Below, one piece after another: positions 2,810-40,013 of a stretch of 62,562 bases of DNA (the stretch's first letter is position 1; each line of letters starts with the position of its first letter). The notes below the pieces were generated by a model. The model made no database searches. It was not told the DNA's origin and worked only from the letters and a program-made list of their open reading frames with translations. The stretch lies in the UHGV virus genome UHGV-0106067; one strand, given 5' to 3'. This DNA is from a virus. The position numbers and the translations under genes were made by a program.

Positions 2810-2812
2810 CAT

Positions 2813-2839
2813 GTAAAAAGGCCCCTGCGATGAGGGGCC
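2813..2839 (-). terminator. intrinsic terminator downstream of R-M operon
   Basis: hairpin ggcccct-gcgatg-aggggcc; on minus strand followed by ttttta. Confidence 0.5.
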
Positions 2840-3211: not shown

Positions 3212-4306
3212 TTAACTGACACCAGAATCATCATAACCGCGACTTGTTATAGCTTGCCTGTATGCGTTCATTTTGCGTTCTGCGTACTGGACAACATCTT
3301 TAATGACAAGCTTATGAACAACTGAAATAAGGTCATTTATATAACAAAAGTCAGGTGACTTATTTTTCACTGGCAACCAAATAACATCGTTCTTAATTTT
3401 TCTATTACTAACACTATCCCCCCATGAATATTTATGTGAAATAGACCTATAAATACATGAAATAATGCCCAAATAAGCAAACTTTGTCCTTCCATCCTCA
3501 TTGTTAACATAGAGTCGCAAATTATGACTGTCGTTTGAAAAAAAGTCTCGCTCCTGATAAGTTACAACGAATGTCTTACCACCAATAAAAATACAGTTCC
3601 CTTTTTCCAAGAGTGAGTCATCATAGGCGATATAAGAACTAACAGAGTTATTATCACGGCTAGCACAAAGATAAGGAACATCCCCACTATTTTCTATGAT
3701 GTCTCTAGACAATATGTTTCCTGTATTGCACACTGAGAATAACTCAGTAACAGGAAAGCCTGAAAATTCAATATTTTTAAAATGTTCCAGGATAAGATAA
3801 TCTTTTTCCGTTAGTTGGTAATCACTCAGCCCAGCAGCTATCAGGTATGCTTCCAGCTCTTCTATATGGGCCGCTTCCAGCTCTTCTATATAATTATCCA
3901 TAAAAAACCAGTCAATTTCATTATTTTTCACTGGTAATGAGATGAAATATTCTCCATCTCTGAGTTTGGAACTCGATAACTGTTGACCATAATTAAAACG
4001 CCCCTTTAAAGCTTTATTAATCATACTGGCAACATACAGTCCGCGCTTTGCATTAAAGTCGGACTTACTTGATTTTAATGTAAGAACATGCACCTTCATT
4101 TCTACGCTGGCACAATAAGGATGATAAAAAGCATCTCCAAAAAAATTAACGCTTATAAAATTTTCATAATGTCTTGCATCATCCATAAACTCGGTATCAA
4201 ACTCTCCGATGATACCGTTTTGATCGCTCTTTGCTGAAACACGTTTGATTTTGCCTGGTTTTAATCTTCCTGAGGAGATAAGCGAGCCTGTGCTCACATA
4301 GAACAA
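3212..4306 (-). CDS. restriction-modification specificity (S) subunit, two target-recognition domains
   Basis: 364 aa; two internal repeats each ending in an LPVKN...D-type segment (FISLPVKNNEIDWFF and VIWLPVKNKSPDFCYINDL) as in HsdS/BcgIB-type subunits; AT-rich; directly downstream of methyltransferase-nuclease gene. Confidence 0.5.
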   Translation of the reverse strand: MFYVSTGSLISSGRLKPGKIKRVSAKSDQNGIIGEFDTEFMDDARHYENFISVNFFGDAFYHPYCASVEMKVHVLTLKSSKSDFNAKRGLYVASMINKALKGRFNYGQQLSSSKLRDGEYFISLPVKNNEIDWFFMDNYIEELEAAHIEELEAYLIAAGLSDYQLTEKDYLILEHFKNIEFSGFPVTELFSVCNTGNILSRDIIENSGDVPYLCASRDNNSVSSYIAYDDSLLEKGNCIFIGGKTFVVTYQERDFFSNDSHNLRLYVNNEDGRTKFAYLGIISCIYRSISHKYSWGDSVSNRKIKNDVIWLPVKNKSPDFCYINDLISVVHKLVIKDVVQYAERKMNAYRQAITSRGYDDSGVS

Positions 4307-4365
4307 ATCGCCAATCCTGAACTCTCCCCACTCAACGCTTCTTAATTTATCGCTGAGCGGGGAAT

Positions 4366-6327: not shown

Positions 6328-6416
6328 CTTGTAATCAAGCCTGTAAGATTTAAGCCATGAGTTCGCCAGTTCGGTAATTTCCGGCTCAACAGATTTTACA
6401 GACTTTCTTGATTTAC

Positions 6417-6451
6417 TGCTGGTCGCTGGTCGCTGGTCGCTGGTCGCTGGT
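6417..6451. repeat. heptanucleotide tandem repeat (YGCTGGT x5) upstream of R-M gene
   Basis: tgctggt cgctggt cgctggt cgctggt cgctggt, about 90 bp upstream of the R-M start. Confidence 0.9.
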
Positions 6452-6635
6452 CTGGCAGCATAAAATCATCCTTTTATGAAAATCAACGATTTTTGAGCAC
6501 TCGCACACAAAAAATTACCGCATTGGTTGCAACGACAACCTGCATTTTGCGGAGCATATGACAAATAAAGTACGGGTGCGTTGAGGATGCCAGACACATC
6601 AGAGGTGGCGGGAGATTACTCCCCTGCCTGGTCTC

Positions 6636-6791
6636 TTACTTCTCAGATTCGTAGTCTACGAAGACAGCGACCTCCGTCTGGCCGGTTCGGATTCGTACCT
6701 CGCAGAAGTCTTTCCTCGTTACCAGTGCTATCACTACGACGGTAATACAGATGACGATCAGGGCGATTAACATCGCCTTTTGCTGCTTCAT
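6636..6791 (-). CDS. hok: Hok/Gef-family type I toxin (HokC/HokD-like)
   Basis: 51-aa ORF MKQQKAMLIALIVICITVVVIALVTRKDLCEVRIRTGQTEVAVFVDYESEK; SD aaggaga upstream; absent from ORF track (<60 aa). Confidence 0.75.
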   Translation of the reverse strand: MKQQKAMLIALIVICITVVVIALVTRKDFCEVRIRTGQTEVAVFVDYESEK

Positions 6792-6966
6792 AGCCTACTT
6801 CTCCTTGCCTTTCGGCACGTAAGAGGCTAACCTAAGTTTGTAAGTCATAGATTTGGCCTCAGATTAATGTTAAGCGTCCTGCAAGACGCGTAATGTTAAC
6901 TGGGGCTTTTCTCTGTCTGCCTTACGGCTGCATGCCCGAGGCAGACAGCCTCAAGCACCCGCAGCT

Positions 6967-6994
6967 ATTCTACAGTAAAAACTCGCGCTTTCAA
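6967..6994 (-). promoter_or_regulatory. candidate late promoter (pR-prime-like) immediately downstream of Q
   Basis: minus-strand TTGAAA-16 nt-TAGAAT; -35 overlaps Q stop codon; inverted repeat ctgtctgcc/ggcagacag just downstream could be part of a qut-like element. Confidence 0.45.
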
Positions 6995-7416
6995 TTTCCC
7001 GCACGTCCGGCAAACTGACTGGCCTGTGATCCTGATGGTTCACGCTCAACGTACCTGTCCATTTCCAGCTTTACTCCCTGCATGATCAACATCCCCTCAA
7101 TAACACCTTCTGCTTTTTGCAGTACCCGCCCGGCCCAGCAATCAGAGCGCCCATGCTTACGGCCCAGTGACATAAGCGTCATCCCGAACACATAATAATC
7201 ATACAGAAAATCATGCAAATCGCTGTTGTTGACGTTCAGTTGCGCCATGCAATTGCTGATAATCAGCGCATCGTCATCGGTACACTGAGGCCGTGATTTA
7301 ACCTTTGACGGGATCAGCCCCTTAAATCCGGCGGCAATGGGCGACCAGCTCACATCCTCATGATTATTGGCCACCCATGCGCCCCAGCGTTCAAGCACCT
7401 GCTGAATATCACGCAT
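6991..7416 (-). CDS. Q: late antiterminator Q (933W/phage-21 type)
   Basis: [45 protein letters not shown] matches recalled Q of Stx phages; position after NinH; start placed at internal Met of 6991..7521 ORF. Confidence 0.65.
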
Positions 7417-7609
7417 CAGAGTCTTTACCCTTATCCCATCCACGATGGACCATAAGGACACCGTTGACGACGGCGTGCCGTTTGCCTTCTTTATCGCCAA
7501 TATATTTTCTGACCGTGGCACGATTACAGTTCAGTATTCGGGCCACCTCGGTCTGATTTCCATATGCCTCAACAAGCATGTCAGGAATGATTTTTACGGT
7601 GAACGTCAT
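7409..7609 (-). CDS. ninH: NinH
   Basis: [36 protein letters not shown] closely matches lambda NinH. Confidence 0.8.
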
Positions 7610-8176: not shown

Positions 8177-8626
8177 TCAGAAAAACGACAGCAGGCGGTT
8201 ATTCAGTTCAGGGCTGTTTGAGCGCCCAAACACATGCTTTAACGCGGCATTAATTATTGCGTTGTAGCAACGTTCAAACTCATCCTGATCCATATTCGCG
8301 TAACTCAGGCTTTTTGCCCGATATCTCACCTCGCCTCTTATGGTTGTGACCACATCATAGAACCCGGCAAGAATTGTCAGATTTTTACGAAACTCATCAA
8401 ACTGCGTCGCTTCATCAGAGAATTCGTATCCAGCATGTTCAGCGCACCAGTACTGAAAGCAGAAATTAAGAAAAGCGAACATCTTCCGGTGAAAAGATGG
8501 GTTACGGGTAAGTTTTGCTTCCAGTGTATACAGCTCACCGTTTTTAAATTTTGCCAGTCGGGGTAAATCGCGCTCATACGCCGGTACAAATACGCCATTA
8601 GCCGCCTTGATCATCTCTATTTCCAT
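8177..8626 (-). CDS. hypothetical phage protein (DUF1367-like)
   Basis: 149-aa ORF tightly packed between primase and ninG. Confidence 0.5.
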
Positions 8627-9597
8627 CAGGCAGCCTCCGCTTTGAATTTGCGCGTCAACACATGTTCACGGGCTTCACACCCCTGAATGAGCATGTCGTT
8701 AAAATCCGGCAAGTCAGGCCAGCGAATGCTGACCTTCTCAACGTCATTACGACTCATGAGATTCTTATGCCCACATTTAAAGGCAGCCGCCAGACCTGCG
8801 CCGTGCTCATCATTGTCTGCAAAGATAATCAGGTGATTAACGCCTGGTGGCGCAATAAACTTCTCCATAAAACCGGAGTTCATTGTTGACCACACATTGC
8901 AGCGGAAGATTTGACGGCATGAAAGCGCAGTTTCGATACCCTCGGCTATCCCCAGAGTGGACGACACCGGATACAGGCGTATTGCCACCGATTTGGCATG
9001 CTGCAAACCAGGCAACTCCTGTAGCGCAGTCATTTTTTTAGCCGCCTCTACATTCGCCTTGCGATCACCATCCAGCAACGTACGATGCAGATAGCAAAGA
9101 GAACCTTTGTCATCTGTTGCAATGGCGTAAATTGCCTGATATTCGCGCCCGCTGGCGATCTGACGGTCACAGAAACGCACGGATTCGGTCGGTAACTGGA
9201 GTATTCCCCTCCCCTGCAGGTACGCCTCACCTGTTGTGCCCCGCAGACACGGGAGTCCGGCAAACTTATCCATGACCCGCTCCCGTTCTCTGGCAATATC
9301 CGTTACAGTGCGTCTGGCATGCCCTCTCTTCCAGGTATTACCAACCAGTCGATCGACTTCATCGCACAGATCAACCCAGGGCTTACCCGTGGCAAGTTGC
9401 AACAACTTCATCCCGTCCCCGTGACCACAGACACAAATCCATGAACCGGAACCATCCTTATCATCACAGCGAAATTTACCTCTGGCACCACATATCGGGC
9501 AGGGGCCGCTATAATGTTTCAAGCCAGTAACAGGAGGCATGCCGTAATATTCAAAAATTCGCCCCCAATGCCCGGCCGCTGCCTTCTTAGTCTGCAT
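8626..9597 (-). CDS. DNA primase (zinc-binding + Toprim domain)
   Basis: CPICG...CVCGHGDG zinc motif; C-terminal Toprim-like segment IIFADNDEHGAGL. Confidence 0.65.
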   Translation of the reverse strand: MQTKKAAAGHWGRIFEYYGMPPVTGLKHYSGPCPICGARGKFRCDDKDGSGSWICVCGHGDGMKLLQLATGKPWVDLCDEVDRLVGNTWKRGHARRTVTDIARERERVMDKFAGLPCLRGTTGEAYLQGRGILQLPTESVRFCDRQIASGREYQAIYAIATDDKGSLCYLHRTLLDGDRKANVEAAKKMTALQELPGLQHAKSVAIRLYPVSSTLGIAEGIETALSCRQIFRCNVWSTMNSGFMEKFIAPPGVNHLIIFADNDEHGAGLAAAFKCGHKNLMSRNDVEKVSIRWPDLPDFNDMLIQGCEAREHVLTRKFKAEAA

Positions 9598-11107
9598 GCT
9601 GGCCTCCTGTCATGGCTTTCTTGCGCCCTTTGGCATAGGCAATGGTCTTTGACTTGATGAAGTTGTACACTTCAACTGAGGTTTGCAGCGGCGCATTACT
9701 GAAGCCTTTAGGCCACACACCGAACTTCTCCTTGTAGGTATGAGCGCACCATCCGTCACTCAGGGGTTTACCCGTCGCGTTGCGGTAATTCTGATAACCC
9801 TTGATCTCACTCCACCAACGCTGTTTTTCCTCACGGGTGTATTCGCGTTTCCCTTTGTTGACGCGTGAAAGCTTACGATCGCGATCTGTCGCCACGTCAT
9901 CACCACCAAGTGGGCGAAATCCACATTTGGGACACATGTGTACACCAGCAGGCTTCATGAAGTGGCATTTGGGGCATTCTCTGGGAAGTTTTTCAGCTTT
10001 AACCTCGCCACCGCCAGCAGACGCTTTCATTCCGTCATTTTTTCCCGGAAGTTCGTCATACTCGATATCCTCGGGGAAGCCCAGCCGATGAACCGTACCG
10101 GAATGGTCGAAAATCAATGCGCGTTTTTTACCAGACGCAGTACGTAACGCTCTCCCGATGCACTGCAACCAGCGGATTTCTGATTTGGTCGGACGGGCGT
10201 AGATCAGGCAGCGAACATCGCTGTCAAATCCCGCAACCAGTACGCCGACGTTGACAATTATTTTGGTCGCACCATCTTCAAAACGGCGAATGATATCCTG
10301 CCGTTCATCATGGGGGGTATCTGCCGTCATCACCTCTGCGCCAATGCCAGACTGTAAAAACTCACGGGTAACAAAGTTCGCATGAGCCACGTTCACGCAG
10401 AAGCAGATCGTCGGTAAATCCTCGCCATTCTCAAGCCAGTTGCTAACGATATCGCCAACCAGATCCGAACTCCCCATGATGGATGCGAGCTGTTCCTCGT
10501 TGTAATCCCGTCCAAATACGGTGTTACTGGTTTTTACGCCAGTCAGATCAGGCATTGAGGGGGCAAAAAACTCGTAATCGCTCAGATCACCACGCTGAAT
10601 AAGTTCACGAATCGTTGTAGGCTTGATCAGGCATTCGTAGTACTTCCCCATCCAGGCTGCGAATGGGGTGCCGGAAAGTCCAAGAACCCTGATGTCTCTG
10701 TCCCGGATAACCTCAAGTAACGCACGACGCTTCATGTGTGCTTCATCGATGATCAGCAGATCGATGTTGTCAGGAAACTCACGACGGATCAGCGTGTCGG
10801 CACTGGCAATCTGAATCAGTCGTGACGGGTCATAGTTAGGGTGATCACGCCATACAAAACTGATTTCTTCCCACGGTAAACCGTATTCGGTGAAACGTTC
10901 CGCTGTCTGGTTCAGCAGGATGGTGTACGGACAGACAAACATCACCCGCATACCACGTTCAACCATTCCGGCGGTGACGAATGCTGCAAGACCAGTTTTG
11001 CCAGAGCCAGTGGGTGCGTACATCAAGTACGTGCGATGCTGTTTCCACTGGTGCCGCAGCTGGTTTAAACCGCGCTCCTGAGCAAAGTTTGGGATTATTT
11101 TCAGCAT
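9587..11107 (-). CDS. SF2 (DEAD/DEAH-type) replicative helicase
   Basis: Walker A APTGSGKT, DEAH box LIIDEAH, C-terminal zinc-finger-like CPKC..CPKC. Confidence 0.75.
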   Translation of the reverse strand: MLKIIPNFAQERGLNQLRHQWKQHRTYLMYAPTGSGKTGLAAFVTAGMVERGMRVMFVCPYTILLNQTAERFTEYGLPWEEISFVWRDHPNYDPSRLIQIASADTLIRREFPDNIDLLIIDEAHMKRRALLEVIRDRDIRVLGLSGTPFAAWMGKYYECLIKPTTIRELIQRGDLSDYEFFAPSMPDLTGVKTSNTVFGRDYNEEQLASIMGSSDLVGDIVSNWLENGEDLPTICFCVNVAHANFVTREFLQSGIGAEVMTADTPHDERQDIIRRFEDGATKIIVNVGVLVAGFDSDVRCLIYARPTKSEIRWLQCIGRALRTASGKKRALIFDHSGTVHRLGFPEDIEYDELPGKNDGMKASAGGGEVKAEKLPRECPKCHFMKPAGVHMCPKCGFRPLGGDDVATDRDRKLSRVNKGKREYTREEKQRWWSEIKGYQNYRNATGKPLSDGWCAHTYKEKFGVWPKGFSNAPLQTSVEVYNFIKSKTIAYAKGRKKAMTGGQHAD

Positions 11108-27277: not shown

Positions 27278-27445
27278 ATGACCGAAAAAGAGGTTTCTGA
27301 TTTGTTACAAAAAAGGCGCACAGCTTTGTATAATTTGCGAAAAAAACACGGATTCCCGGAACCAGTACTTACTCATCCGGCGCGATATAGTCGTCAGGCC
27401 GTTGAACAATGGCTTAAAGCCGGAGGAATTAACCGAGCTGTTTAG
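27278..27445 (+). CDS. AlpA-family excisionase / DNA-binding regulator
   Basis: 55-aa ORF MTEKEVSDLLQKRRTALYNLRKKHGFPEPVLTHPARYSRQAVEQWLKAGG with SD aaaggag; not in ORF track (<60 aa); convergent with integrase, overlapping its 3-prime end by 17 bp. Confidence 0.55.
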   Translation: MTEKEVSDLLQKRRTALYNLRKKHGFPEPVLTHPARYSRQAVEQWLKAGGINRAV

Positions 27446-28673
27446 CGTGCCAGAAAATTTTATCAGCATACAACTCATACGCATCTTTCTGTTCCGACAA
27501 CCAGTCGTGTTTATTATACACGGCCATAACTCCCCCAAGTTCATGCCCCAGCATTTTTTCAGTGACGTGGGGCATAATTCCTTCCCCAGATAAATTCGTT
27601 ACCAGAGAACGCCTAAAATCATGCGTTCTCCATTCAGGAATATCAATTTTCTCCCTTAACTTTTTCATGTACAAATTAGCCGACGAACGATCAATAGGTT
27701 TATCTATTTCCTGCCCGGGGAATAGCACATCAAAACCCGCATTAAGCAATCTCTCGATATAAGGTTTAACCTGAGTGAATACCGGACGCCGGATAATATT
27801 CCCCATTTTTGAATGCTCTTTTGGGGTTGTCCAGACCAGATCTTCCATGTTGAACTCACTGGCTGTCGCGAGACGTAGCTCAGAAAGTCTGGCCCCCCAT
27901 AGCAATAGCAATTGATGTAACACCTTGTTGGAAGTAACTACTTTTGAGTTCTCCAGCGCCAGCCAAATTTTTGCCAGTTCCGTATAGGTAAGTACACGAC
28001 TCCCTACATCTGGTTTTTTCCCAATATTCTTAACACTAAGCTTGAGTAATTCGCATGATGGGATTAACTGGCGGCTGATACACCAGTTAATAACTGAACG
28101 CAGTTGTAACAACAAAACACGAGCCTTTTTCTTGTTGAGGCTTTCTTGTTTGTCAAAGAAACGAGCCCATGCCGATACTGGGATACTGGCAACTGGCGAG
28201 CCTTCAAACTGTGTGTACATAGTGTTGTACACGACGGATCTGTAAAGCGTCTGTGTATTGGGTTTCAGATCAGTAACATACTTATCCCACCACTGATCCA
28301 GGCATTCTTTTAATGTCAGTTCGCCGTCACTGGGCGCAAAATAATTTTTAGGGTTAACTCCCTTCATGTACAATGCGCGCATCTCACCGACGATAACACG
28401 CGCGTCCTTCAGTGAAGTAGACGGATAGCGCCCGACAGTAAGACGTACTGGCTTACCATTCCAGCGATAACGGTACTGAAACGTGATAGTTCCTGCTGGA
28501 GTAATCCGCACACTTAACCCGTCACCATCGGTGATTTCAGCAGGGCCAGAGTAGGGTTTTCCGTAGAGGCCTCGTAGTTTGGTGTCGCTCAGTGCCAATG
28601 CTTTATATCCTGTACACAAGTTTATAATGTATTCTGTACTCAATATGTACGCATTAGCAAGTGAACAAAACAC
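27429..28673 (-). CDS. int: tyrosine recombinase / phage integrase (P4-like family)
   Basis: 414 aa; C-terminal catalytic region with HDFRRS...GH...Y arrangement; true start uncertain. Confidence 0.8.
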   Translation of the reverse strand: MFCSLANAYILSTEYIINLCTGYKALALSDTKLRGLYGKPYSGPAEITDGDGLSVRITPAGTITFQYRYRWNGKPVRLTVGRYPSTSLKDARVIVGEMRALYMKGVNPKNYFAPSDGELTLKECLDQWWDKYVTDLKPNTQTLYRSVVYNTMYTQFEGSPVASIPVSAWARFFDKQESLNKKKARVLLLQLRSVINWCISRQLIPSCELLKLSVKNIGKKPDVGSRVLTYTELAKIWLALENSKVVTSNKVLHQLLLLWGARLSELRLATASEFNMEDLVWTTPKEHSKMGNIIRRPVFTQVKPYIERLLNAGFDVLFPGQEIDKPIDRSSANLYMKKLREKIDIPEWRTHDFRRSLVTNLSGEGIMPHVTEKMLGHELGGVMAVYNKHDWLSEQKDAYELYADKIFWHAKQLG

Positions 28674-28939: not shown

Positions 28940-31900
28940 TTACTCCACTCCCACTTTTTTGTTGTACTCGCGGTTAAACCGATCCACGGCAATTTTCATA
29001 TCCCGCTCAACCGATTTCACCATCGCCGACTGTTGCGCCAGACTGAGAGTACTGTCGGCGTAAATGGCATCACGCTGTTTACGCAAATCCTTCAGTCTCT
29101 TCCGGGTATCCTGCATAAGCCCGTTCATCAACAATTTTCCGTTGTTCTCGTCAATGAACGCCGTTCTTTCTGCACCGGTCAGACTCTTCAGCTCTGCGTG
29201 ATACTGCGCAACCTCTGTCATCCGGTCGTACATCTTCTGCTGGTCTGCATACGGCATCACCTCACCCGAAATTTTCCCCAGGAAGGGCACCTGCTGCTCC
29301 GGTATATCAATACCGTTCAGCGATTTCACCGCCGCATCTGTGGTTTTGGAAATGAAGCGCCCTGTCCCTCCGGAGATATAGTCAATCCAGAATTTCAGCG
29401 ATTCCGGTGTGATATCCACCGCGCCGGGACGATACTGGCTGCCACCTGAGAACGCATTCAGCCAGGATGCAAACGCCTTGTACGCCTCAGGCGTTGAACG
29501 TCTGCCCAGCTGGCTGTCCGGTTTCGGTGTGCCAAATGGCATGTTCTCCTGGTAAATCTGCGCCCCCATGAAGTTTTCATTCATGGCAAGGTTCGCAAAC
29601 GGACGCAGAATGGTCGGCGCTGCATTTTTCAGCAATGCCCCGGACAGTGTTTCCGACGTTTCACTGCCCACAGGACTGAATGCCCCCAGGATACCACCGA
29701 CAACATTACCGGCAGCACGTGAAGCAGTCAGGTCGCCCGCTGCCACACCTTCAGCAGTATGCCCGAGCAGGAAGAAAACGTTGTACCCGTAAGGCAGAGG
29801 AATACTCCAGTACTCTCCGGCCTTGCCCCCGAACACCGATTTCATAATGACGAGGTTACGCTCTTTCACATGAGACGGCACCTTGTCATACCAGTTAACC
29901 CCGTCATCATCCTCCCCCGCAACACTGCGGTTAAGCGAGCCAAGCAGATAACCCGCTCCCACAGCTGCAAGCGCGATTTTCTGCGGTACATTGAGATTCT
30001 TCCAGCGAAGGCGCTCCGGTAACGGCCCGTCGCCATTAAGATGTCCGAGCGTTCTCACCAGGTTTGCGGTCCCCTGAATGCTGGCGTTGGCAAACATATA
30101 CAGCGAGTTCATCAGCGCTCCCTGCTCACCACGACGGTTAAAGTTCACCGTCATGTTTTTGGCAAGAGATGCCGCCTGCTGGCGTGACAAACCGGCATCA
30201 CGGGCGTGTTTATAGGCAGAAAGACGCAGAGCGTTTTCAACCGCGCCGTTGGCATCCTCGACCAGGTTCAGGAACGAATGCCATGCACCGATACTCTGGC
30301 CTTTCCATCCTCCCTTCGCCAGCGATACAAGGCGATCCATTTCCTTCTGCTGGCCTTCAAGGTCACCCATGTTAAACCAGCCGGTTTTACCTCCATCCTC
30401 AACAAACTCTTTCCACACCTTCTGCCACTGCGCACCGTTGCCCGTGAGGGTTTTACCACGCAGACTGGCGTATACGGCAGACATGGCAGACCGGCTGTCT
30501 TTCACCACAGCCAGGGCGGATAAGTTATCCAGCCCTTTCAGTTTACCGTCGCTCCTTCCCTGCTCAGCCTTCAGGTTCATCACCGCCGTCTGCACGTCAC
30601 GGATGAAGTTACTGACCAGAAATTCCGGGTTATACGACGTGTTCACCGTTGCCAGGAAACGGTTAACTTTCCCCAGCGTACGGATTACGGCGTTACTGGT
30701 TTCCGGCCCCATGTTCTTCATCGCACGCATCAGGCGCGGGTCATGGAGTTTGATGTAGTAAGTTTTGCCGTCCTTTTTGGTGGTGAAGTAGCGATCCGCC
30801 ATCATTGCCATAGGCACCGGACGTTCAACAACTTCGCGACGGGTTTCGCCGGTTTCCGGATCAACACGCTCTGCAATCGCCCGCATGGTGTCCGGTTTGT
30901 CATCAGTGAATACCTGCCAGTAATCCTTATCGGGATTATCCTGCACCAGTTTCAGGAAGGCGTTACCCACTTCGTTTTTGCGATTGCGGATCAGCGATTC
31001 GCTCAAATCCTGTATCGCCTGAGTGGAAGGAGACTGTGCGCGGGATGCACGCCCCATGGCCTGCCTGCTTTCACGTCCGCCGATGGTGAAGCCCTTACCT
31101 GCACGGGGCAGTGACACCACACCGTCAACATCCTGACCTTTCAGGGGAACGTAGTAACGGTAGGCGTTCTGCCAGGCATCCACCACACCGCTCTCTTCCA
31201 GTCCGGCCTCACGGATAAGCTCACGGCGACGGGCCAGCATATCGTCAACAATCCCTGCCAGACGGTCATACTGTGCCTGTTTGCCACTGTTACGCACACG
31301 CTGCATGATTTCCGCCGCTTCCGCGTTGGTCATCCCCGAACCGCCGTCCGGCATTTTCGGGTTGATTTTCGCGATATGCGCGTTACGTTCCGGCGCGTGA
31401 CGGGCGTAGAGGTACTCATCCAGATCGGCCTGCGCAATTTTGTAGTCCGCCAGTAATTTAGCCAGTGGCTGAACGTAGCGCTCCTTCATCACGTTCAGGT
31501 CGTTTTCCGCCTTCCCGTGGAAGAGTTCTTCAGCCATATAGGCGTTATTGCTGTCATCTATTTTTCCGCCAGTTTTACGGATATTCTCCTGCACCGCCTT
31601 CAGCACCTGGAATTTATCCTGCATCTGGCGAACAAAACGGGATGCAATTGTCTCTTCCGGTGTCAGACTGCTGGTACGGGAGTAATACGGCCCCTTGCGA
31701 ATATCTTCAGGATAGAGTATTTTATCTACAGAGCCGCGATAAGAATGTTCCCCTTTGGGCAATTGAAGCCCTCTGTGCAGAAGGTTATCGCGGCTTAATT
31801 TTTTCTTCCGGTAAAGCGTTAATCCGGCTTTATCCAGACTATTTGCCTTATTCATTCCTCCTTCCGTACCGTAAACCGAAGCTACCTTGTTGATTTCCAG

Positions 31901-34900
31901 GCGCGACCGGACAGCCTTCATGTGTACCGCTGACACTACAGGATCACCATTTTTATCCATGGCATCAAGCAGCATCACAACCGCATTTCTTTCTGTCGCG
32001 GAACGGTAAATTGCATCCGGATCGTGCATCAGTTCCGGTAGTCTCTCGATAACATCCATCGGCACCACATGTTTCACTCCATTGGTGGCCTTACGCACAG
32101 TGTCGCGGGAGATAACCAGCGGCAAATCTGGTGCGCCAAGGTGACGCAATACCGGCGGCGTACGCCCGATGTTTACCGTTAAATCTGTGGTGCGCAGAGA
32201 CTTCATCATTCTGGCAAGGTCATCACGATAACGCTCGCCCTCACCTTCCGGCACTTTGAACGGATCAGTCTTACCGCTACGGGAGTACTGAGACGATGCG
32301 CCAGCGCCATCCTCACGCGGCGTGTAACCTTCCCGCACACGCTGGCCTAACGTGCGAATAGTTTCGCGAACAAGTCTGATATCGTTCAGCTCTGTCGGCT
32401 TCAGTAACCCCGTGCGACGCAGTACCCCTTTGACCAGGGCAACAACACGCTCCCACGCCGCCACAAATTTATTCGGCTGTTTCTCCGCCATATGTGCCAG
32501 AAATTCACCTGCCTGCACTTCCGGTGATTCCTTAGCATAAGACGCATCAACCTTACGCCAGGCTTCACGGATGGTGGCGTTATCACTGTCACGGGTTTTC
32601 AGCACGGTCTTAATAATCGTCTGATATTCCGCTGGCGTGACTACATGCTCCATTGCATGGTGAATAATCTCGTGACGTAACTTCTCGCGAACGGTCCGCC
32701 CATCAGGGATGTTATCCGCCACCAGGACAATTTCACGTTTATCCGGACGATAGAACGCGTGCACCTTGCCGTAACCGTCGAATGATTCACCCGCCAGTGC
32801 TTCAGCCTCTTTCTGTGACTTCACCACGCGGACCTTCAGGTCACTGTCCTTAATGCCACTAATCACGCCACGGGCAACAGCTTCAACCTGCGGGACCGGA
32901 CTGCCTTTGGCTTCCGCACTACGGTTAACATCCGAAATCAGATTGCCTTCAGGTGTGCGGGTCACGCCCTTACGGGAATAAAACGCAACTCCCTTGTCCG
33001 TCTCACGGGTTTTCAGTGTTCGGAACAAGTGATCGAATGCCTCACGAATACCGCCATCCAGTTCTGCATTCGTCGGATAAGCGTAGGTGTCCGGCTGTCC
33101 ATGGTCATCCGCCTTACGGATATTGACCAGATAATCATTCTCCACGCCAGCCATACGCGCTTTATCCTGAACATAACGCTCAAAGGCTCGCGCCGCCATT
33201 TCAACATCCGTTGACCAGTACGGTTTTGAACGAACGCCATCCAGGCGTTCAGAACGACGCAACATGTCACTGCTGTTAATGGCTTTCATCACGCCTTTAA
33301 ACGCGTCGTAAACCTCCTGACGTACCGGATATTCCGCATCAACATACCTGCCGTCTTTAAATACGCGCCCGGCACGCTGTGCTTCCGTCATATAGTCGCC
33401 ACCTGACGTGATCTTCCCGTCAGTGGAAACATCATAACGACCAAAATAATTATCCAGTGAATGGAACCATTCGTGGGCCAGCGCCCCCGGTCCGTTACCT
33501 TTTGTCAGGTTGATTGCCACCTCACCCGGCTCATAGTGTGCCGCCGCCTTACCCTTACCACGGGCACCAAAAGCAAGCCCAAGACGACCGTTCAGAGAAA
33601 GCGCTTTTGTCGGCACGTTCAGCACGTCAGCCAGGTCATGCAGCGAGTCATAAGCCCGGTTCAAATCAGCCTGACGACGCGGACTTTCCACATAATTACC
33701 AAACTGCACACCACAAAAACCAAACGCATCACTGAACTGCTCCGGCGAAACATCCCCCTTGCGGCGTTCTGGTCCGGTACGATCGCGGTTGGTGGCGTTA
33801 CGCTGCTCCTCACGCGAGACTTCACGCAGCGCCTTCACCTGATTAACCAGCTCATCACGATGTGTGCGCACATAATCATGTGCATCACGGGCAGACTCAA
33901 AACCGCCCTTCAGTTTCTGCCTGTTTTTGCCATAACCGATAAAAATGTCGCCACTGGCCTTATGCCGGTACACGTCAAAGGTTATTCTGTCATCAGCAGA
34001 GGTTGCTGGCGTTTCCCTTTCTCTGGAGCCTTGTTCATCGAAATATGCTTTCGCCTTTTTCAGTAACTCATCCCGGCTTTCCGAGAAAAAGAGGTCGCGC
34101 CCCTTGCTATCACGAAGCGAATACATCATTTGCGGCGGATCGTAACGTTTTCCCCCGACAAACGAATAAACACCGGACCTGACACGATAGCCGGATGCTT
34201 TATCAATCTGCAATGCAGAAAGCGTACGGAGCAGTTTCCAGGTATCCGACATGCTCCGTAACCCCGGCTTACTGTCCATCATATCAGCCAGTTTCGCTGC
34301 CGGAATTTTCCCCTCCAGCATACCGGCAGTAGCTTCGCGACCGCTTTTAACAATGCTGATCCATTTCTGCATGTTACGGCTTGTTCTGGTGGGAATTTCA
34401 CTGCGATACAACGCCATCATTGCCAGCGTGTCACTATCCACACCTTCTTTTTCCAGACGGGCATAATCCGGCTTTGGAAACAGTTTGCTCAGTGGTTGTG
34501 TCGCGTACTCCCCATCCTCCAGCGTTTTACCCATAGCTTCAGCAAGCTGCGCATAACGGTGTTTTGCCGCGCCCTTAATCTCCTCGCCAAAGTCTTCAAT
34601 TTTCGCACCACGCGCCTGCTGGTGAGTGCTCGGTTTATCTACCGGCACCGGCACCTCAGTATCCGGAACATCGGTTATGGTCTGGCGATTATCCCCGGTC
34701 TGTCTGCGCGCTTCTGCCTGCTGTGCCAGTTCCGGAAGGGAGTCACGAACCATACGAGGGAGTGATTCAGGCTGTGGCATATCAACCCCACGCTGACTTT
34801 CAGGTGCAGGAAGTCCTTCACGCATTGGTGCTGTGGCGTTCTGCTCATCCGGTGACGGCAGACCACGACGAACTGTTTCGCCCTCCAGTATTTCCCCCTG

Positions 34901-37291
34901 GCGACCAGCGGCATTTTCCGGTGCCTGCGCACGTCCTTTCTGGAAACTCTGGCCCTTCACCTCACCGGTTGTGGTAAAACGACCACCACGTCCGGCCTGA
35001 TTTTCATCCGGCGTACGCGCTACTTCTCCTGGTAACGGATATCCCTGTCCGGGATGAATATCGCCGGGAGCGGGAAGGCGTGGACGCTCAGTTAACTCCT
35101 GTGCTGTCGGACCGGCATCACCTTCAGCCATCTGGGAACGCACCAGTTCTTCCGCCGTCGGCGCGTTGCCACGGGCAAGACGGGCCTGCACTTCTGTATC
35201 ATCCCCCGTAAAACCACGGAATCGCGGGTCACGCATGAACGCGGGCTGTTCCATCGGATCAGCATCAGTAATACGCTCTCCGTCAGCCAGAGTGTTAATG
35301 GTCTCCGTTGCCACATCTTCAGAGAACGCAGGATTATCCATTTCAACGGCATACTGATTCTCGCCTTTCTTCACTACGGACGGTTTCAGGCCGGTGGCGC
35401 TGGCATTGCGGAAAACGTCGCTCCCCAGAGCACTTTTTTCATCCGTGAAATAACGGTTGTCCGGACGCACCTTTTCAATGCGTTCTGCTGGTCTGGACGC
35501 ACCACTCCCGTTAATTTCAATACGAACTTCATCCGGATCGCGGAACCGCACCGTCGGGTAAATACTCCCGTCGCCATCATCCGCATTTTCCGGCTGTGGC
35601 TGTGCCTCCGGTCTGGCCTCCTGCTGAGGGCGAAGCACATCACGGATAGCCTGTAACTGCTGCTCTTCAGTATCAGTACGCCCTTCCTTCAGGCTGAGTT
35701 TTCGGTATTCCTCAAGCAGTTCAGGGCGCGGCTTCGCCTTCAGCTCATCCATCACCGCCTGTCGCTTCGCCTGTTCATCCAGTTCATTTAACAGCTGGCT
35801 GGCGGCTTCCCGGCGATGAACGGCAGACGTGTCTCCCTCAGGTGCCATATCCGCATCAGCATACTGTTCCAGAAGTTGCTCGCGATTCATGCCCTGCATG
35901 GATTCGCGATGCTGTGCCACCGGATCAGCCGGTTCGGGTTGCGGGGCTGCTTCACCCTGCTGTACGACTTCAGCCTCACGCATGGCGGTTTCTTCTGCGG
36001 CCTGACGTTTTCCACGATATCCGGCAACCGCACCGAACGGTGCGCCCATCGCTGCACCAAGAGCGGCTCCTTCGATCGTTGCGTCAGCTACCCCCTCCCA
36101 TGGTGATACATCCATTCCGGCAGTCTCACGCAACGTCATATTTTCCTGGTAACGCGAATAGCCGCCCTGCGCCGCATTAATCGTCCCCTGTTCCGTGGCA
36201 TTTCTGACAATGCCGCTTTTAACGGTCTTCGCCGTGCCCCGCATCGCCAGATTAAACAACTGAGCATCGCCCAGTTTTGCCGCCATGGCATTCACAGCCA
36301 GCAATTCAGGATCGGTTGCCAGCTGCGCGCGCACCTCATCGGCAACACGCTCTTTTGCCAGATCCATTTTCTGGCGATCAGTAAGCTGTGCGTGCTGCGG
36401 ATCTGCATCAATTGACAAAAACGTCTGCTGAAATTTCGGGGACTTCGCCAGCTCAGAGTAATCCGCGTTAAGAACAGAGTCTGCTGCTGCCATTGCACTC
36501 TGCCCCTGTGCGCTGGCTGAGGAATGGGTGATCAGGCCTGCCTGGAATAAATCCGGCATTTTTTTATCGACAGCTTCTGCTGCCAGTGCGGTAGCTCTTT
36601 CCGGCTGCATCCCTGCCGCAATGTATTTTTTCTCCAGCCCGGCGGTCAGCACTTTTCGCAGAGTGACTTCACCCAGCTTTTTAGTCACACCGCCTGCAAC
36701 CATATCAGGTACAAGGGCACCAATCAGGTTTACGCCCTTCGCCACCCAGACCGCAGAATCATCATAGCCTTCAGTCATCGGTGTATTCAGCGCCCGCTGC
36801 GCCCCCGGCGACATCTTGCCAGTCAGCCATTCATCCGAGGCTTTAGCGCCGCCACTGACTGCCTTGCCTGTGACCTTCAGACCTTTACCGACAGTATCAG
36901 TAACCGCATTTTTTCCATCAGGCAGAGTGTCGATGACCTCATCCGCCCCCTTGCTGCCACCGACAAAAATATCCTGAACAGTTGCGACTCCCGGCAGCCC
37001 CATACGGCTGAACTCATTTAAAATACGCGCCCCTGTTTTTACCGGGCTCTGAATCATCGCATCACCGAGTCCACGGGCCATTTCCCCTGCCCCCCGGACA
37101 GACTGGGCGACACCTTTCCCCATCGTTGGTAATACATCACTCAGGCTGAACGATGTGCTGTGATCAACAGCGTTCTCCGGGTTGTTGAAAAAATCCTGCC
37201 AGTAATTTTCGCCCGGCTGCTTAATGTTCAGGCTGCTGCGGTTCCGGTTACCCAATTGTGCTTCAGGGCGCTGTTCATCTGAATAAGCCAT
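28940..37291 (-). CDS. giant polyvalent virion/ejection protein (2783 aa) with two HExxH zincin-like motifs
   Basis: single uninterrupted ORF; ALAHEWFHSLDNYFGRY and LRHEIIHHAMEH motifs; Pro/Glu-rich low-complexity linker; last and largest gene of the structural block. Confidence 0.65.
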   Translation of the reverse strand: MAYSDEQRPEAQLGNRNRSSLNIKQPGENYWQDFFNNPENAVDHSTSFSLSDVLPTMGKGVAQSVRGAGEMARGLGDAMIQSPVKTGARILNEFSRMGLPGVATVQDIFVGGSKGADEVIDTLPDGKNAVTDTVGKGLKVTGKAVSGGAKASDEWLTGKMSPGAQRALNTPMTEGYDDSAVWVAKGVNLIGALVPDMVAGGVTKKLGEVTLRKVLTAGLEKKYIAAGMQPERATALAAEAVDKKMPDLFQAGLITHSSASAQGQSAMAAADSVLNADYSELAKSPKFQQTFLSIDADPQHAQLTDRQKMDLAKERVADEVRAQLATDPELLAVNAMAAKLGDAQLFNLAMRGTAKTVKSGIVRNATEQGTINAAQGGYSRYQENMTLRETAGMDVSPWEGVADATIEGAALGAAMGAPFGAVAGYRGKRQAAEETAMREAEVVQQGEAAPQPEPADPVAQHRESMQGMNREQLLEQYADADMAPEGDTSAVHRREAASQLLNELDEQAKRQAVMDELKAKPRPELLEEYRKLSLKEGRTDTEEQQLQAIRDVLRPQQEARPEAQPQPENADDGDGSIYPTVRFRDPDEVRIEINGSGASRPAERIEKVRPDNRYFTDEKSALGSDVFRNASATGLKPSVVKKGENQYAVEMDNPAFSEDVATETINTLADGERITDADPMEQPAFMRDPRFRGFTGDDTEVQARLARGNAPTAEELVRSQMAEGDAGPTAQELTERPRLPAPGDIHPGQGYPLPGEVARTPDENQAGRGGRFTTTGEVKGQSFQKGRAQAPENAAGRQGEILEGETVRRGLPSPDEQNATAPMREGLPAPESQRGVDMPQPESLPRMVRDSLPELAQQAEARRQTGDNRQTITDVPDTEVPVPVDKPSTHQQARGAKIEDFGEEIKGAAKHRYAQLAEAMGKTLEDGEYATQPLSKLFPKPDYARLEKEGVDSDTLAMMALYRSEIPTRTSRNMQKWISIVKSGREATAGMLEGKIPAAKLADMMDSKPGLRSMSDTWKLLRTLSALQIDKASGYRVRSGVYSFVGGKRYDPPQMMYSLRDSKGRDLFFSESRDELLKKAKAYFDEQGSRERETPATSADDRITFDVYRHKASGDIFIGYGKNRQKLKGGFESARDAHDYVRTHRDELVNQVKALREVSREEQRNATNRDRTGPERRKGDVSPEQFSDAFGFCGVQFGNYVESPRRQADLNRAYDSLHDLADVLNVPTKALSLNGRLGLAFGARGKGKAAAHYEPGEVAINLTKGNGPGALAHEWFHSLDNYFGRYDVSTDGKITSGGDYMTEAQRAGRVFKDGRYVDAEYPVRQEVYDAFKGVMKAINSSDMLRRSERLDGVRSKPYWSTDVEMAARAFERYVQDKARMAGVENDYLVNIRKADDHGQPDTYAYPTNAELDGGIREAFDHLFRTLKTRETDKGVAFYSRKGVTRTPEGNLISDVNRSAEAKGSPVPQVEAVARGVISGIKDSDLKVRVVKSQKEAEALAGESFDGYGKVHAFYRPDKREIVLVADNIPDGRTVREKLRHEIIHHAMEHVVTPAEYQTIIKTVLKTRDSDNATIREAWRKVDASYAKESPEVQAGEFLAHMAEKQPNKFVAAWERVVALVKGVLRRTGLLKPTELNDIRLVRETIRTLGQRVREGYTPREDGAGASSQYSRSGKTDPFKVPEGEGERYRDDLARMMKSLRTTDLTVNIGRTPPVLRHLGAPDLPLVISRDTVRKATNGVKHVVPMDVIERLPELMHDPDAIYRSATERNAVVMLLDAMDKNGDPVVSAVHMKAVRSRLEINKVASVYGTEGGMNKANSLDKAGLTLYRKKKLSRDNLLHRGLQLPKGEHSYRGSVDKILYPEDIRKGPYYSRTSSLTPEETIASRFVRQMQDKFQVLKAVQENIRKTGGKIDDSNNAYMAEELFHGKAENDLNVMKERYVQPLAKLLADYKIAQADLDEYLYARHAPERNAHIAKINPKMPDGGSGMTNAEAAEIMQRVRNSGKQAQYDRLAGIVDDMLARRRELIREAGLEESGVVDAWQNAYRYYVPLKGQDVDGVVSLPRAGKGFTIGGRESRQAMGRASRAQSPSTQAIQDLSESLIRNRKNEVGNAFLKLVQDNPDKDYWQVFTDDKPDTMRAIAERVDPETGETRREVVERPVPMAMMADRYFTTKKDGKTYYIKLHDPRLMRAMKNMGPETSNAVIRTLGKVNRFLATVNTSYNPEFLVSNFIRDVQTAVMNLKAEQGRSDGKLKGLDNLSALAVVKDSRSAMSAVYASLRGKTLTGNGAQWQKVWKEFVEDGGKTGWFNMGDLEGQQKEMDRLVSLAKGGWKGQSIGAWHSFLNLVEDANGAVENALRLSAYKHARDAGLSRQQAASLAKNMTVNFNRRGEQGALMNSLYMFANASIQGTANLVRTLGHLNGDGPLPERLRWKNLNVPQKIALAAVGAGYLLGSLNRSVAGEDDDGVNWYDKVPSHVKERNLVIMKSVFGGKAGEYWSIPLPYGYNVFFLLGHTAEGVAAGDLTASRAAGNVVGGILGAFSPVGSETSETLSGALLKNAAPTILRPFANLAMNENFMGAQIYQENMPFGTPKPDSQLGRRSTPEAYKAFASWLNAFSGGSQYRPGAVDITPESLKFWIDYISGGTGRFISKTTDAAVKSLNGIDIPEQQVPFLGKISGEVMPYADQQKMYDRMTEVAQYHAELKSLTGAERTAFIDENNGKLLMNGLMQDTRKRLKDLRKQRDAIYADSTLSLAQQSAMVKSVERDMKIAVDRFNREYNKKVGVE

Positions 37292-37303: not shown

Positions 37304-37331
37304 AAAAAAAAGCCCGACGCGATGGTCGGGC
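37304..37331 (-). terminator. intrinsic terminator immediately upstream of the polyvalent-protein gene
   Basis: hairpin gcccgac-catcgc-gtcgggc followed on minus strand by tttttttt. Confidence 0.55.
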
Positions 37332-37376: not shown

Positions 37377-38639
37377 TTACTTCATCCAGCCTCTGATCTC
37401 TTCGGCTGATGCAGCAGCGCTATAATTCTTCGCTTTTTCCTGTTCGGCTTTTTTATCCCGGAGGTGATTCTGGTACCAAATTTCCAGCTCCTTTTCACGC
37501 CCCGGTTCCAGCAAGGCTGGCATATTGGCGGCAGTCGCTTTGACAAACTCCAGTTTGACCGGATCGCCCTCCGCCCAGGTCTGCCCCTTCTGTAAAAGCT
37601 GTTCAAATTTCTGTTGCTGAATTTTCTGCTGATATTCCGGTAAACCATGCGCAGCTAAAAATTCATCCCTCGCAGCCTGAGCATTACCGCCGTTCTTGAT
37701 CGCTTCCGCTGCTACCTGGCTGGCTTCTTTCTGAATATCTTTCAGAGAAAGCCCCTCCTGCTTCGGCGTGAAATAACCGAAATTTTTCGAAATTTCCGCG
37801 AATTTACTGCGATCCCTGACAAGCTCAACAGCCTTATCAACAGGCACCGCCAGCACGGTTTGATCATCAGGATGTGCACTGCCGTATTCTGTTACAGGTT
37901 TATGCGCGGTGGAGCCATCGCTGTATGTGAGATCAAGGCCAATAAGTACGTACCCTTCCTGCTGCGCCGGTACGATACTGCCAATCCTGGCCTCTTTTAT
38001 CGTCTTTTTCCCGGTTGAATCGGGCATGCCAATACGCTGTTGCAGTTCCGGGGCAAACACACCAGAAAGCGCATCAAGACTTTCCGGGGTATTGAGTGAA
38101 GCGATCGCCCTGTCCGGCTTGTCATCAAAGATTTTTTGCAGGTTGTTCACGGCCTGACCCGCTTTCGCTGCATAGCCTTCACTTGACATAAGAGTTAATG
38201 GATGTCCCTTTGGTAACTGCCCGTAAATACGCATTGCAGCCTCCTGATCGCCAGCATCAATTGCTTTTCCAAGCGCTGTCATTAATGGCTGGCTGTGGGC
38301 AATCATATCGTTATACTCAAGCCGTCGCTGGTTGTATTTTTCCAGTTGCAGCCTCTGCTGAGAAATGCCAAGTGACGCATTCCGGTAATTCTGCGCTGCG
38401 GCGTGTTCCCTCTCTTTCAGCGCATATTCACGATCGGCATTTTTGACATTAAGATCATATGTACGCTGATCATTTTCCTTTCGATGCTCAAACTGCGACT
38501 GCGCAAATTCAAAATCGCGCTCGTTATTTTTCTGTTGTTGAGCAAGCTGTGCTTCACGCAGACCAAGCTCCTTACGACGGGTCATGGCCTGGTCAACGGT
38601 GCTGAATCCGGCAAGTAACCCCTGTGCAAATCCGCTCAT
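37377..38639 (-). CDS. hypothetical virion protein
   Basis: 420-aa ORF, coiled-coil-rich. Confidence 0.45.
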   Translation of the reverse strand: MSGFAQGLLAGFSTVDQAMTRRKELGLREAQLAQQQKNNERDFEFAQSQFEHRKENDQRTYDLNVKNADREYALKEREHAAAQNYRNASLGISQQRLQLEKYNQRRLEYNDMIAHSQPLMTALGKAIDAGDQEAAMRIYGQLPKGHPLTLMSSEGYAAKAGQAVNNLQKIFDDKPDRAIASLNTPESLDALSGVFAPELQQRIGMPDSTGKKTIKEARIGSIVPAQQEGYVLIGLDLTYSDGSTAHKPVTEYGSAHPDDQTVLAVPVDKAVELVRDRSKFAEISKNFGYFTPKQEGLSLKDIQKEASQVAAEAIKNGGNAQAARDEFLAAHGLPEYQQKIQQQKFEQLLQKGQTWAEGDPVKLEFVKATAANMPALLEPGREKELEIWYQNHLRDKKAEQEKAKNYSAAASAEEIRGWMK

Positions 38640-38910: not shown

Positions 38911-39363
38911 TTACGCTGACACCAGTTGTCCGCCAACACTCAGTTGCTGTCTTGCAGGTGCAGAAGCCCCCGTCAGTATGTTCATCTGGCGATCCTGCTC
39001 TGCTTCACGGATACCATTTTTCGCGCCAGCAATTGCCAGGGCATTACGTAACCCCAGCGTATTACTGTTGGGATTATCAGGTCGGTTAACGCCATATCGT
39101 GCCATCTGGTTATCCTGCGCCATCTGCGCTGTACGGAGACTGGAAGTGGCAAGGCCGCCCACCCGGGCAAGCTGCGCATTCATCAGGCTGTTGTTCTCGC
39201 CAAGGTCAGCCAGCCTTGCCACGCGGGGCAAATATCTGGTTCGCCAGTCGTCGTATTGTTGGCGTGTCAGCGCTGCTGACGTCTGCCAGTCACCCTGTGG
39301 GCGGGCTGCTCCTGAATAACCAGCCCTTGCGAGAGTTTCGTATTTACCGTACTCCATAATCAC
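38911..39363 (-). CDS. hypothetical virion protein
   Basis: 150-aa ORF in structural block. Confidence 0.4.
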   Translation of the reverse strand: MIMEYGKYETLARAGYSGAARPQGDWQTSAALTRQQYDDWRTRYLPRVARLADLGENNSLMNAQLARVGGLATSSLRTAQMAQDNQMARYGVNRPDNPNSNTLGLRNALAIAGAKNGIREAEQDRQMNILTGASAPARQQLSVGGQLVSA

Positions 39364-40013
39364 AGTCTCCAGTTCTGAGCCTGATGCTGAATGGCATTAG
39401 CGCCGGTGCCTGGCGTTTTAGCGCCACCACCTCCGTTACCGCCAGCCTTATGCATCGCGTACGCACCTACAGCTCCCAGACCAGCGCCAACAAGAGAAGC
39501 TCGCCCCTGCTGTTTCGTAAACGCAGCCTGTGCGTCCGATTTAGCTTTTGCCAGACTGCTGTCTGCCAGCGAGTTAAAACTCTGTAACGCATCTGCCTTC
39601 TGACCGGAACCGAGAGCAGCAACATCCTGTAGCCCGGCAACATACTTATCTGCCTGCGATACCTGCCCCCGTGTGGTTGTGTCAATCTGCCCGGTTACCT
39701 GATCACTCTGGTTCGCATTCATTACCGCGTTAAAGCGACCACTGGACGGGTCAACACCGGACTGAGCAAGATTACCCGCCAGCTCCTTCCGTGCTTCGCC
39801 AAACTGTTTCTGATACCCCAGATTTGTGGTGCCAGCAATATTGTCGTACTGCTGCTCACTGTTAAGGTCATCGACCTTTTTCATGAAGTTATCTTCTGCC
39901 GGACGGAGAATATTTTTGTAATCCTGCCACCCTTTCCAGGCCACCTCTTCCTGTGCTATTTGCGCTGCTGTTGGTTTTACTTTGGTATCACCACCACCTT
40001 TACTTCCGCCCAT
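39360..40013 (-). CDS. hypothetical virion protein
   Basis: 217-aa ORF; Gly-rich ends. Confidence 0.45.
   Translation of the reverse strand: MGGSKGGGDTKVKPTAAQIAQEEVAWKGWQDYKNILRPAEDNFMKKVDDLNSEQQYDNIAGTTNLGYQKQFGEARKELAGNLAQSGVDPSSGRFNAVMNANQSDQVTGQIDTTTRGQVSQADKYVAGLQDVAALGSGQKADALQSFNSLADSSLAKAKSDAQAAFTKQQGRASLVGAGLGAVGAYAMHKAGGNGGGGAKTPGTGANAIQHQAQNWRL

Follow-up and report, generated by a model that had tools for sequence, protein, structure and literature searches.

What is the function of the giant protein of 2783 amino acids (aa) whose single 8.3-kb open reading frame (ORF) closes the late gene block of UHGV virus genome UHGV-0106067, a stretch of 62,562 nucleotides (nt) that was analysed as a whole and is referred to here as the window? 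A sequence-only reading of the locus regarded this ORF as the last and largest late gene and its product as a polyvalent protein. The ORF is the largest in the window and takes up approx. 13% of the genome; it ends the minus-strand late block, is preceded by GGAG 6 nt 5' of its ATG, and is followed downstream by an integrase gene (27429-28673). It probably encodes a giant polyvalent internal virion protein of a 933W/phi24B-type podovirus, which would be encapsidated and ejected and would act as scaffold plus effector; its internal location, ejection, proteolysis, targets and membrane role are what we infer from the evidence below. Both the gene and its class are already known: orthologues appear in RefSeq as 'LPD5 domain-containing protein' or 'LPD38 domain-containing protein', Pfam names the class likewise, and genetic and proteomic data on orthologues have been published.

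The definitions of polyvalent proteins, of their metallopeptidase (MPTase) clades, and of the PBECR and LPD domains come from a 2017 paper by Iyer, Burroughs, Anand, de Souza and Aravind (PMC5512222). At Pfam gathering cut-offs of approx. 27 bits, the window protein matches LPD38 (164.8 bits), LPD5 (148.6 bits), LPD1 (80.9 bits) and MuF_C (61.3 bits), and PHROGs profiles assign its full length to a family of unknown function and its C-terminal part to a 'DarB-like' family. As in the polyvalent proteins of Iyer et al. (2017), several unrelated domains, including those of LPD type, are joined in one polypeptide, zincin-like MPTase domains are present, and the gene stands among virion genes; packaging of the product, a further mark of the class, is taken from the proteomics of a 90%-identical phi24B protein. 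Domain-by-domain profile searches and structure prediction returned polyvalent-protein domains and a model with two zincin cores, which bears out the proposed multi-domain architecture. The two HExxH motifs of the sequence-only reading are also present, HEWFH at aa 1273 and HEIIH at aa 1540, but the second belongs to a family whose motif is HExxxH, and the two are separated by 267 residues, not by about 200. The amino-acid composition predicts 0.039 HExxH motifs per protein, and the probability of two or more is approx. 7e-4. Neither His motif lies inside any Pfam match in the whole giant protein; both lie in conserved modules of zincin topology, called here MP1 and MP2. The Pro/Glu-rich low complexity noted earlier is found in a linker at aa ~441-894 (Table 1). 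Sequence and profile searches of the PDB with the whole protein, MP1, MP2, the N-terminal domain and the C-terminal module returned nothing significant.

The first motif is embedded in a module composed of a helical domain X, LPD5, the MP1 core and LPD1. An AlphaFold2 model of aa 895-1700, based on an alignment (A4) anchored on proteins with both modules, has a mean pLDDT (predicted local distance difference test) of 84.8. In this model, X consists of helices (pLDDT approx. 90), and MP1 comprises an N-terminal helix (1203-1224), strands at 1238-41, 1251-54 and 1259-62, and a helix (1271-1286) containing HEWFH, which corresponds to the gluzincin-type order of helix, three strands and HExxH helix. 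The MP1 core is covered by no Pfam model. In an alignment of 28 diverse members (A1), AAHYEP, INLTK, AHEWFHxxD and E..ARAFE are invariant or nearly so; in particular, the H, E, W and H of the motif are each conserved in at least 90% of sequences, while E1364 is invariant and E1371 occurs in at least 90%. As both glutamates are on a modelled helix (1362-1380), E1364 or E1371 is a candidate for the third zinc ligand. The phage-type MPTase clade is distinguished by a conserved His that closes strand 2 and by an Asp at the third position after HExxH (PMC5512222). Because the MP1 motifs match this clade and LPD1 carries the Glu helix, LPD5 and LPD1 are the flanks of one zincin-like module. Judged by sequence, the true start of the module is at approx. 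aa 899; the motif DFGxxIxGAxK found there is common to the giants and to stand-alone LPD5-MP1-LPD1 proteins.

Indeed, the LPD5-HEWFH-LPD1 stretch also exists as a stand-alone protein of approx. 335 aa on many contigs. At the metagenome loci L006-L010, such proteins open with DFGxKIGGAxKD, and their genes lie in long arrays of 60-140-aa ORFs beside a helix-turn-helix gene, divergent from terminase and portal genes. These arrays are phage early regions. One of the terminases bears a LAGLIDADG intein-like insert.

Indexed homologue searches returned short fragments with the MP1 and MP2 segments and near-identical copies only with the full-length query; the distant relatives of MP2 come from an exhaustive HMMER search, which yielded 379 homologues, almost all within proteins of 2000-6000 aa. 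An alignment-free count found HE...H in 145 of 150 MP2 domains and HE..H as well in only 8. It follows from this family motif, HExxxH, that H1545, and not H1544, is the conserved second His; a count of 148/148 for H1544 in an alignment, which had pointed to HExxH, was an artefact of gap placement and was rejected. E1596 is present in 147 of 147 domains. An HExxxH motif followed by a conserved downstream Glu is the signature of the HEXXXH clade that Iyer et al. recorded among polyvalent-protein MPTases (PMC5512222). The model of MP2 comprises an N-terminal helix (1466-1478), three strands, a His-motif helix (1531-1550) and a Glu helix (1590-1603). MP2 has no match in Pfam and no sequence match in the PDB, and a Pfam scan of the family members gave only sub-threshold Peptidase_M76 and MATCAP hits. 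The module is duplicated in some giant proteins. When MP1 and MP2 were compared by hhalign, only a strand and the His-motif helix were aligned (E = 0.008, probability 5%); by sequence, the two are not demonstrably close paralogues.

MuF-C, which follows MP2, corresponds to PBECR, a barnase/EndoU-fold predicted ribonuclease (RNase) with a His on the N-terminal helix plus a Ser or Thr in strand 4 (PMC5512222). Residues K1734, H1741, S1805 and Y1827 are invariant in 24 MuF-C homologues, and H1741 and S1805 appear to fit the active configuration of His plus Ser/Thr. MuF-C is thus predicted to be an RNase-fold domain and no peptidase, and the 'MuF-C metallopeptidase' to which a phi24B preprint ascribes peptidoglycan degradation is probably a mislabel.

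The enzyme-like modules are framed by two others. The N-terminal domain contains three invariant glycines (G412, G416 and G420 in alignment A6); it has only sub-threshold Gly-zipper matches in Pfam and no match in the PDB. In the C-terminal module, approx. 110 columns are invariant (alignment A5), and profile searches of the PDB and fold comparison detected no solved structural relative. Domain shuffling among homologues, which the sequence-only reading had suggested looking for, was found in a sample of 149 giant proteins retrieved via MP2: fixed N and C modules enclose variable cargo. The order is invariable, namely N, variable cargo, (X-LPD5-MP1-LPD1), MP2, (MuF-C) and C1-LPD38-tail, with approx. 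400 to 2800 aa between N and MP2. The N domain is present in 40 of the 149 and N-terminal in all 40, the linker is conserved in 6, and AAA_34 plus Helicase_C_4, a Sno/DarB-type helicase, are carried as cargo by two. A second sample, unbiased by MP2, comprised 55 loci from different species picked by the C module alone; MP2 lies no more than 1000 aa upstream in 31 of these (median gap 195 aa), MP1-LPD1 occurs in 14 and MuF-C in 5. At the level of sequence, this linkage test supports a scaffold-plus-cargo architecture.

The C module is widespread. Its identity to the window protein is 42% in Vibrio phages, 26-28% in Ralstonia GP4-like and Burkholderia Bcep22-like phages, the giants of which are annotated 'DarB-like', and 28% in Methanosarcina virus MetMV; Bacillus megaterium podophages share it in part. 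Prophages with the module are found in Gamma-, Alpha- and Betaproteobacteria, Bacteroidota, Planctomycetota, Verrucomicrobiota, Gemmatimonadota, Acidobacteriota, Campylobacterota, Actinomycetota and Cyanobacteria. Such breadth across phyla, extending to a Methanosarcina virus, is the pattern expected for a core virion function.

Published work on orthologues indicates that the protein is both essential and abundant in virions. In Sp5, a prophage of O157:H7 Sakai, the 2793-aa ORF80 (ECs1242) is essential for plaque formation and lysogenisation; without it, DNA packaging and head morphology are normal, but the heads are not bound by an anti-tail-fibre antibody, and the authors concluded that ORF80 plays a role in tail formation (PMC5155283). 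The phi24B orthologue, gp47 (vb_24B_48), and the window protein share 90% identity across the full length. With 10,962 peptide-spectrum matches (PSMs), gp47 ranks directly behind the capsid protein; it is concentrated in the four gel slices that lie above the portal peak at 80 kDa, and its peptides span aa 108 to 2625, including both zincin modules (bioRxiv 10.64898/2026.04.10.717836). It is missing from the cryo-electron microscopy (cryo-EM) maps of the same study, whose authors propose that it is an encapsidated ejection protein (bioRxiv 10.64898/2026.04.10.717836). Moreover, 51 unique peptides of gp69 were detected in CsCl-purified virions of the Bcep22-like phage JC1 (PMC9144972). That the protein is injected to counter host defences, as the sequence-only reading had it, can only be inferred; orthologue essentiality together with virion abundance lacking cryo-EM density points to a role in ejection or assembly at least as much as to anti-defence.

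The following mechanism is proposed. The N domain and the approx. 900-aa LPD38 C module would form a fixed scaffold that enters the capsid, leaves it through the portal and tail at infection, and possibly contributes to a trans-envelope conduit, whereas the segment between them would be exchangeable enzyme cargo. The first cargo would be the lethal-factor/MtfA-like zincin X-LPD5-MP1(HEWFH...E1364)-LPD1, which probably works in trans against a host or defence protein; a trans-acting role is the more likely one because the module is also a free-standing phage early-region protein. The second, MP2 of the HExxxH clade (H1540, E1541, H1545 and E1596), would be the best candidate for a protease that cleaves the polyprotein into its functional parts, because it is tied to the C module and because its clade is thought to process polyvalent proteins. 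The third, PBECR/MuF-C, appears to have the His/Ser configuration of an active RNase and is a candidate RNase. A bolder form of this proposal is put forward tentatively and is more doubtful than not: the N glycine-zipper domain and the LPD38 C module would constitute an unrecognised single-polypeptide 'ejectosome' of 933W-, GP4- and Bcep22-like podoviruses, with relatives from Proteobacteria to a Methanosarcina virus, in which a universal chassis carries swappable effector cargo, MP2 is a dedicated release protease, and LPD5-MP1-LPD1 is a trans effector protease directed at a host target.

Several points weigh against an encapsidated, ejected scaffold plus effector. Ejection, proteolysis, zinc binding and RNase activity are predicted properties of the window protein and of its close homologues. 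The hydrophobic segments of the giant protein are weak, which makes membrane insertion speculative, and the model of the C module is of moderate quality (pLDDT 68.9) and matches no solved ejection protein of T7, P22 or N4 type. Furthermore, phi24B gp47 is distributed over several gel slices above 80 kDa, and slice counts for the whole protein neither show nor exclude processing. Finally, the failure of Sp5 deletion heads to bind the tail-fibre antibody is not directly explained by an ejection model; it suggests a role in tail attachment or assembly that would not be expected of a simple 'passenger' ejection protein.

This last phenotype keeps a structural rival alive, in which the protein, as concluded for Sp5 ORF80, is needed to build or attach the short tail, and its enzyme-like domains are incidental. 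DNA-filled, normal-looking heads without the tail-fibre label (PMC5155283) and the position of the gene at the end of the tail-gene block speak for such a role. However, in the phi24B cryo-EM structure the portal, adaptors, nozzle, needle and fibres are explained without recourse to the giant protein, although that protein ranks second by PSMs, and the COG1483 'AAA+ ATPase' assignment of Sp5 ORF80, on which the idea of an 'energy-requiring step' was based, was not reproduced by a Pfam scan of the window protein. The strict conservation of both zincin active-site motifs and of the PBECR residues likewise implies that the enzymes matter. A tail-assembly or tail-structural protein is, overall, an unlikely explanation.

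It is less likely again that the protein is purely an injected anti-defence or host-takeover effector, comparable to P1 DarB or ArdC, that plays no mechanical part in delivering the genome. Membership of the polyvalent-protein class (PMC5512222) accords with this idea, as do the stand-alone MP1 modules in phage early regions and the C-module homologues that are annotated DarB-like and carry a Sno-type helicase. Nevertheless, retention of the N and C modules across phyla, whatever the cargo, fits a core virion function, and neither the N6-adenine methyltransferase nor the helicase that characterise the P1 DarB type was detected by Pfam in the giant protein. P1 DarB is, moreover, dispensable on non-restricting hosts, whereas the Sp5 homologue ORF80 is essential even on laboratory K-12.

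Cell-wall hydrolases are frequent in podovirus ejection proteins, which counts in favour of another proposal, namely that the metallopeptidase degrades peptidoglycan and so lets the ejection conduit through. This role was put forward in the phi24B preprint (bioRxiv 10.64898/2026.04.10.717836). It is left unsupported because MuF-C, being PBECR (barnase/EndoU-like), is a predicted RNase and no peptidase, and because the zincin modules resemble the protein endopeptidases lethal factor, MtfA and PPEP, not cell-wall hydrolases; the giant protein gave no match to lysozyme, transglycosylase, M23 or M15, and the proposal has at best a slim chance of being correct. Lastly, a tape-measure or tail-spike protein, for which only size and position among the late genes would argue, can safely be dismissed in a phage of short-tailed type with separate tail-fibre and needle genes, as the profile searches (Pfam and PHROGs) matched no such family and revealed enzyme-like domains instead.

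The surroundings of the gene accord with the absence of tail tube and sheath genes stated in the sequence-only reading: the neighbouring genes are podovirus tail-fibre, nozzle and virion genes, and none near the giant ORF encodes a tail tube, sheath or tape measure. The features of the locus are listed in Table 1.

Table 1. Position of the giant gene, of the domains and modules of its product, and of adjacent upstream features in the window
Feature	Position	Strand	Remarks
Giant ORF, 2783 aa + stop	28940..37291	minus	ATG at 37291; phrog_616 full-length match
N-terminal domain, putative scaffold, aa 1-440	35972..37291	minus	ends in glycine zipper GxxxGxxxG (36017-36082)
Low-complexity linker, aa 441-894	34610..35971	minus	rich in Glu, Ala, Pro, Arg, Gln (E 11%, P 9.5%, Q 8%)
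Helical domain X, aa 895-1045	34157..34609	minus	opens MP1 module; DFGxxIxGAxK at aa 899-910
LPD5, aa 1046-1189	33725..34156	minus	Pfam E = 2e-43; model: beta-sheet + helices
MP1, predicted zincin core, aa 1190-1349	33245..33724	minus	AAHYEP, INLTK, HEWFHSLD; HEWFH = 33461-33475
LPD1, aa 1350-1435 (Pfam 1350-1429)	32987..33244	minus	Glu-bearing C-terminal helix region of MP1
MP2, predicted zincin module, aa 1459-1674	32270..32917	minus	HEIIHH aa 1540-1545 = 32657-32674; E1596 = 32504-32506
MuF-C / PBECR domain, aa 1700-1870 (Pfam 1739-1831)	31682..32194	minus	E = 1.1e-16
C-terminal module, putative scaffold, aa 1871-2783	28943..31681	minus	C1, LPD38 region (Pfam 2466-2671, E = 3e-48), helical tail
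Terminator-like hairpin + T8	37312..37331	minus	20 nt 5' of giant-gene start codon
Upstream gene, 420 aa, probable partner	37377..38639	minus	phrog_601; homologue of Sp5 ORF79 and phi24B gp48

The hairpin upstream of the start codon (arms GCCCGAC and GTCGGGC, followed by T8) is strong and lies within the late operon. Presumably, it is read through by Q-modified polymerase, and it could keep expression of the giant gene below that of the upstream genes. The next gene encodes a 420-aa product that is probably a true partner of the giant protein in the virion. Its Sp5 homologue, ORF79, is essential, and DNA packaging is normal in its absence (PMC5155283). With 1634 PSMs, the phi24B homologue, gp48, outnumbers both the nozzle and the adaptors in virions; it is labelled 'Transcription factor?' in the preprint and was seemingly dismissed there as a contaminant (bioRxiv 10.64898/2026.04.10.717836). 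In Vibrio phage D62, a weak homologue of the 420-aa gene is also located 5' of the giant gene. Further upstream (38911-40013, minus strand) are ORFs of 150 and 217 aa, whose phi24B homologues gp50 and gp51 were detected in the virion proteome but receive no comment in the preprint. These two, the 420-aa gene and the giant gene may constitute an 'internal protein' block. On the plus strand, antisense to the giant ORF, lie several mechanical ORFs of 100-200 aa (29033-36180; e.g., 33461-34066) with no sign of being genes; the phi24B record lists their counterparts as hypothetical proteins.

The window is an stx-negative relative of the 933W/phi24B phages (Sepvirinae). The giant gene matches 186 phage records at 90-95% DNA identity, nearly all from Stx-converting phages of the 933W/phi24B group (Sepvirinae, Traversvirus), and occurs in prophages of 427 of 5426 complete E. 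coli genomes; for many of the copies in Stx phages and E. coli prophages, DNA identity amounts to 95-97%. A protein identical to the giant protein, P0137, is present in public collections, and for the rest of the window the nearest relative is Escherichia phage PhiR12_3. In 933W-type phages, stxAB is located between the Q antiterminator gene and that of a NanS-like esterase. In the window, the corresponding slot (2601-6991, minus strand), flanked by Q at 6991-7521 and the NanS-like esterase at 628-2601, contains genes for a 653-aa 'DNA methyltransferase' (4366-6327, phrog_13671) and for a functionally unassigned protein of 364 aa (3212-4306). These two make up a different moron, possibly a modification or defence pair. 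A primase (8626-9597) and a helicase (9587-11107) make up the replication module (8626-11107, minus strand), where lambda-type O/P genes are found instead in the annotated Stx2 phage 86.

Phages of the 933W/phi24B type spread Shiga toxin genes. The giant gene is essential in Sp5 and occupies a large share of the genome. The placement of candidate catalytic residues allows point mutants to be designed in MP1 (H1273, E1274, H1277, and E1364 or E1371), MP2 (H1540, E1541, H1545 and E1596) and PBECR (H1741 and S1805). In addition, the proposed division into scaffold and cargo predicts which parts infectivity would depend on and which would matter only if the host is defended.

Among known systems, the closest are phi24B gp47, Sp5 ORF80 and the giant ORF of the 933W group, which are orthologues of the window gene and, like it, are each the last late gene before int; the window allele differs in belonging to an stx-negative relative, nearest to PhiR12_3. 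Compared with the phi24B allele, aa ~801-1200 (window 33692-34891; the end of the linker, X and LPD5) are 60-75% identical and the rest 90-100%, and such patches within the gene look like recombinational mosaicism. The first approx. 100 aa are approx. 80% identical in all three close comparisons. More distantly, Bcep22 gp75, JC1 gp69 and the Ralstonia GP4-like giants, which are virion-associated by proteomics, share the approx. 900-aa C module at 26-28% identity; they are encoded by the last or near-last morphogenesis gene of podoviruses with portal and capsid genes related to the 933W ones. These giants, of 4500-4600 aa, carry a methyltransferase and a Sno/SNF2-type helicase as cargo, whereas the 2783-aa window protein carries LPD5-MP1-LPD1 and PBECR. 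With P1 DarB, the window protein has in common its large size and the presumed encapsidation and delivery with the DNA, and the shared C-module family bears the PHROG label 'DarB-like'. To anthrax lethal factor, MtfA and PPEP zincins, sequence identity is 11-15%, and MP2 differs from these by its HExxxH motif.

The proposed likeness to T7 gp14-16, P22 gp7/16/20 and N4 vRNAP lies in being internal to the capsid, invisible in symmetric maps, and ejected before the DNA or together with it. N4 vRNAP, too, belongs to the giant polyvalent proteins and includes an MPTase (PMC5512222). No resemblance in fold or sequence to the solved podovirus ejection proteins was detected, and one polypeptide here stands in place of three proteins. 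With the polyvalent proteins of Iyer et al. (PMC5512222), the window protein shares its nature as a multi-domain giant encoded among virion genes, the LPD5, LPD1, LPD38 and MuF-C/PBECR domains, and both MPTase types, one with the strand-2 His and the Asp after HExxH and the other with HExxxH. There is no difference in kind. The classification is unchanged, and what is added are refinements: LPD5 and LPD1 as the flanks of a zincin module, the HExxxH type of the second motif, the candidate residues, the probable mislabelling of MuF-C, and the linkage of cargo to what appears to be a fixed scaffold around it.

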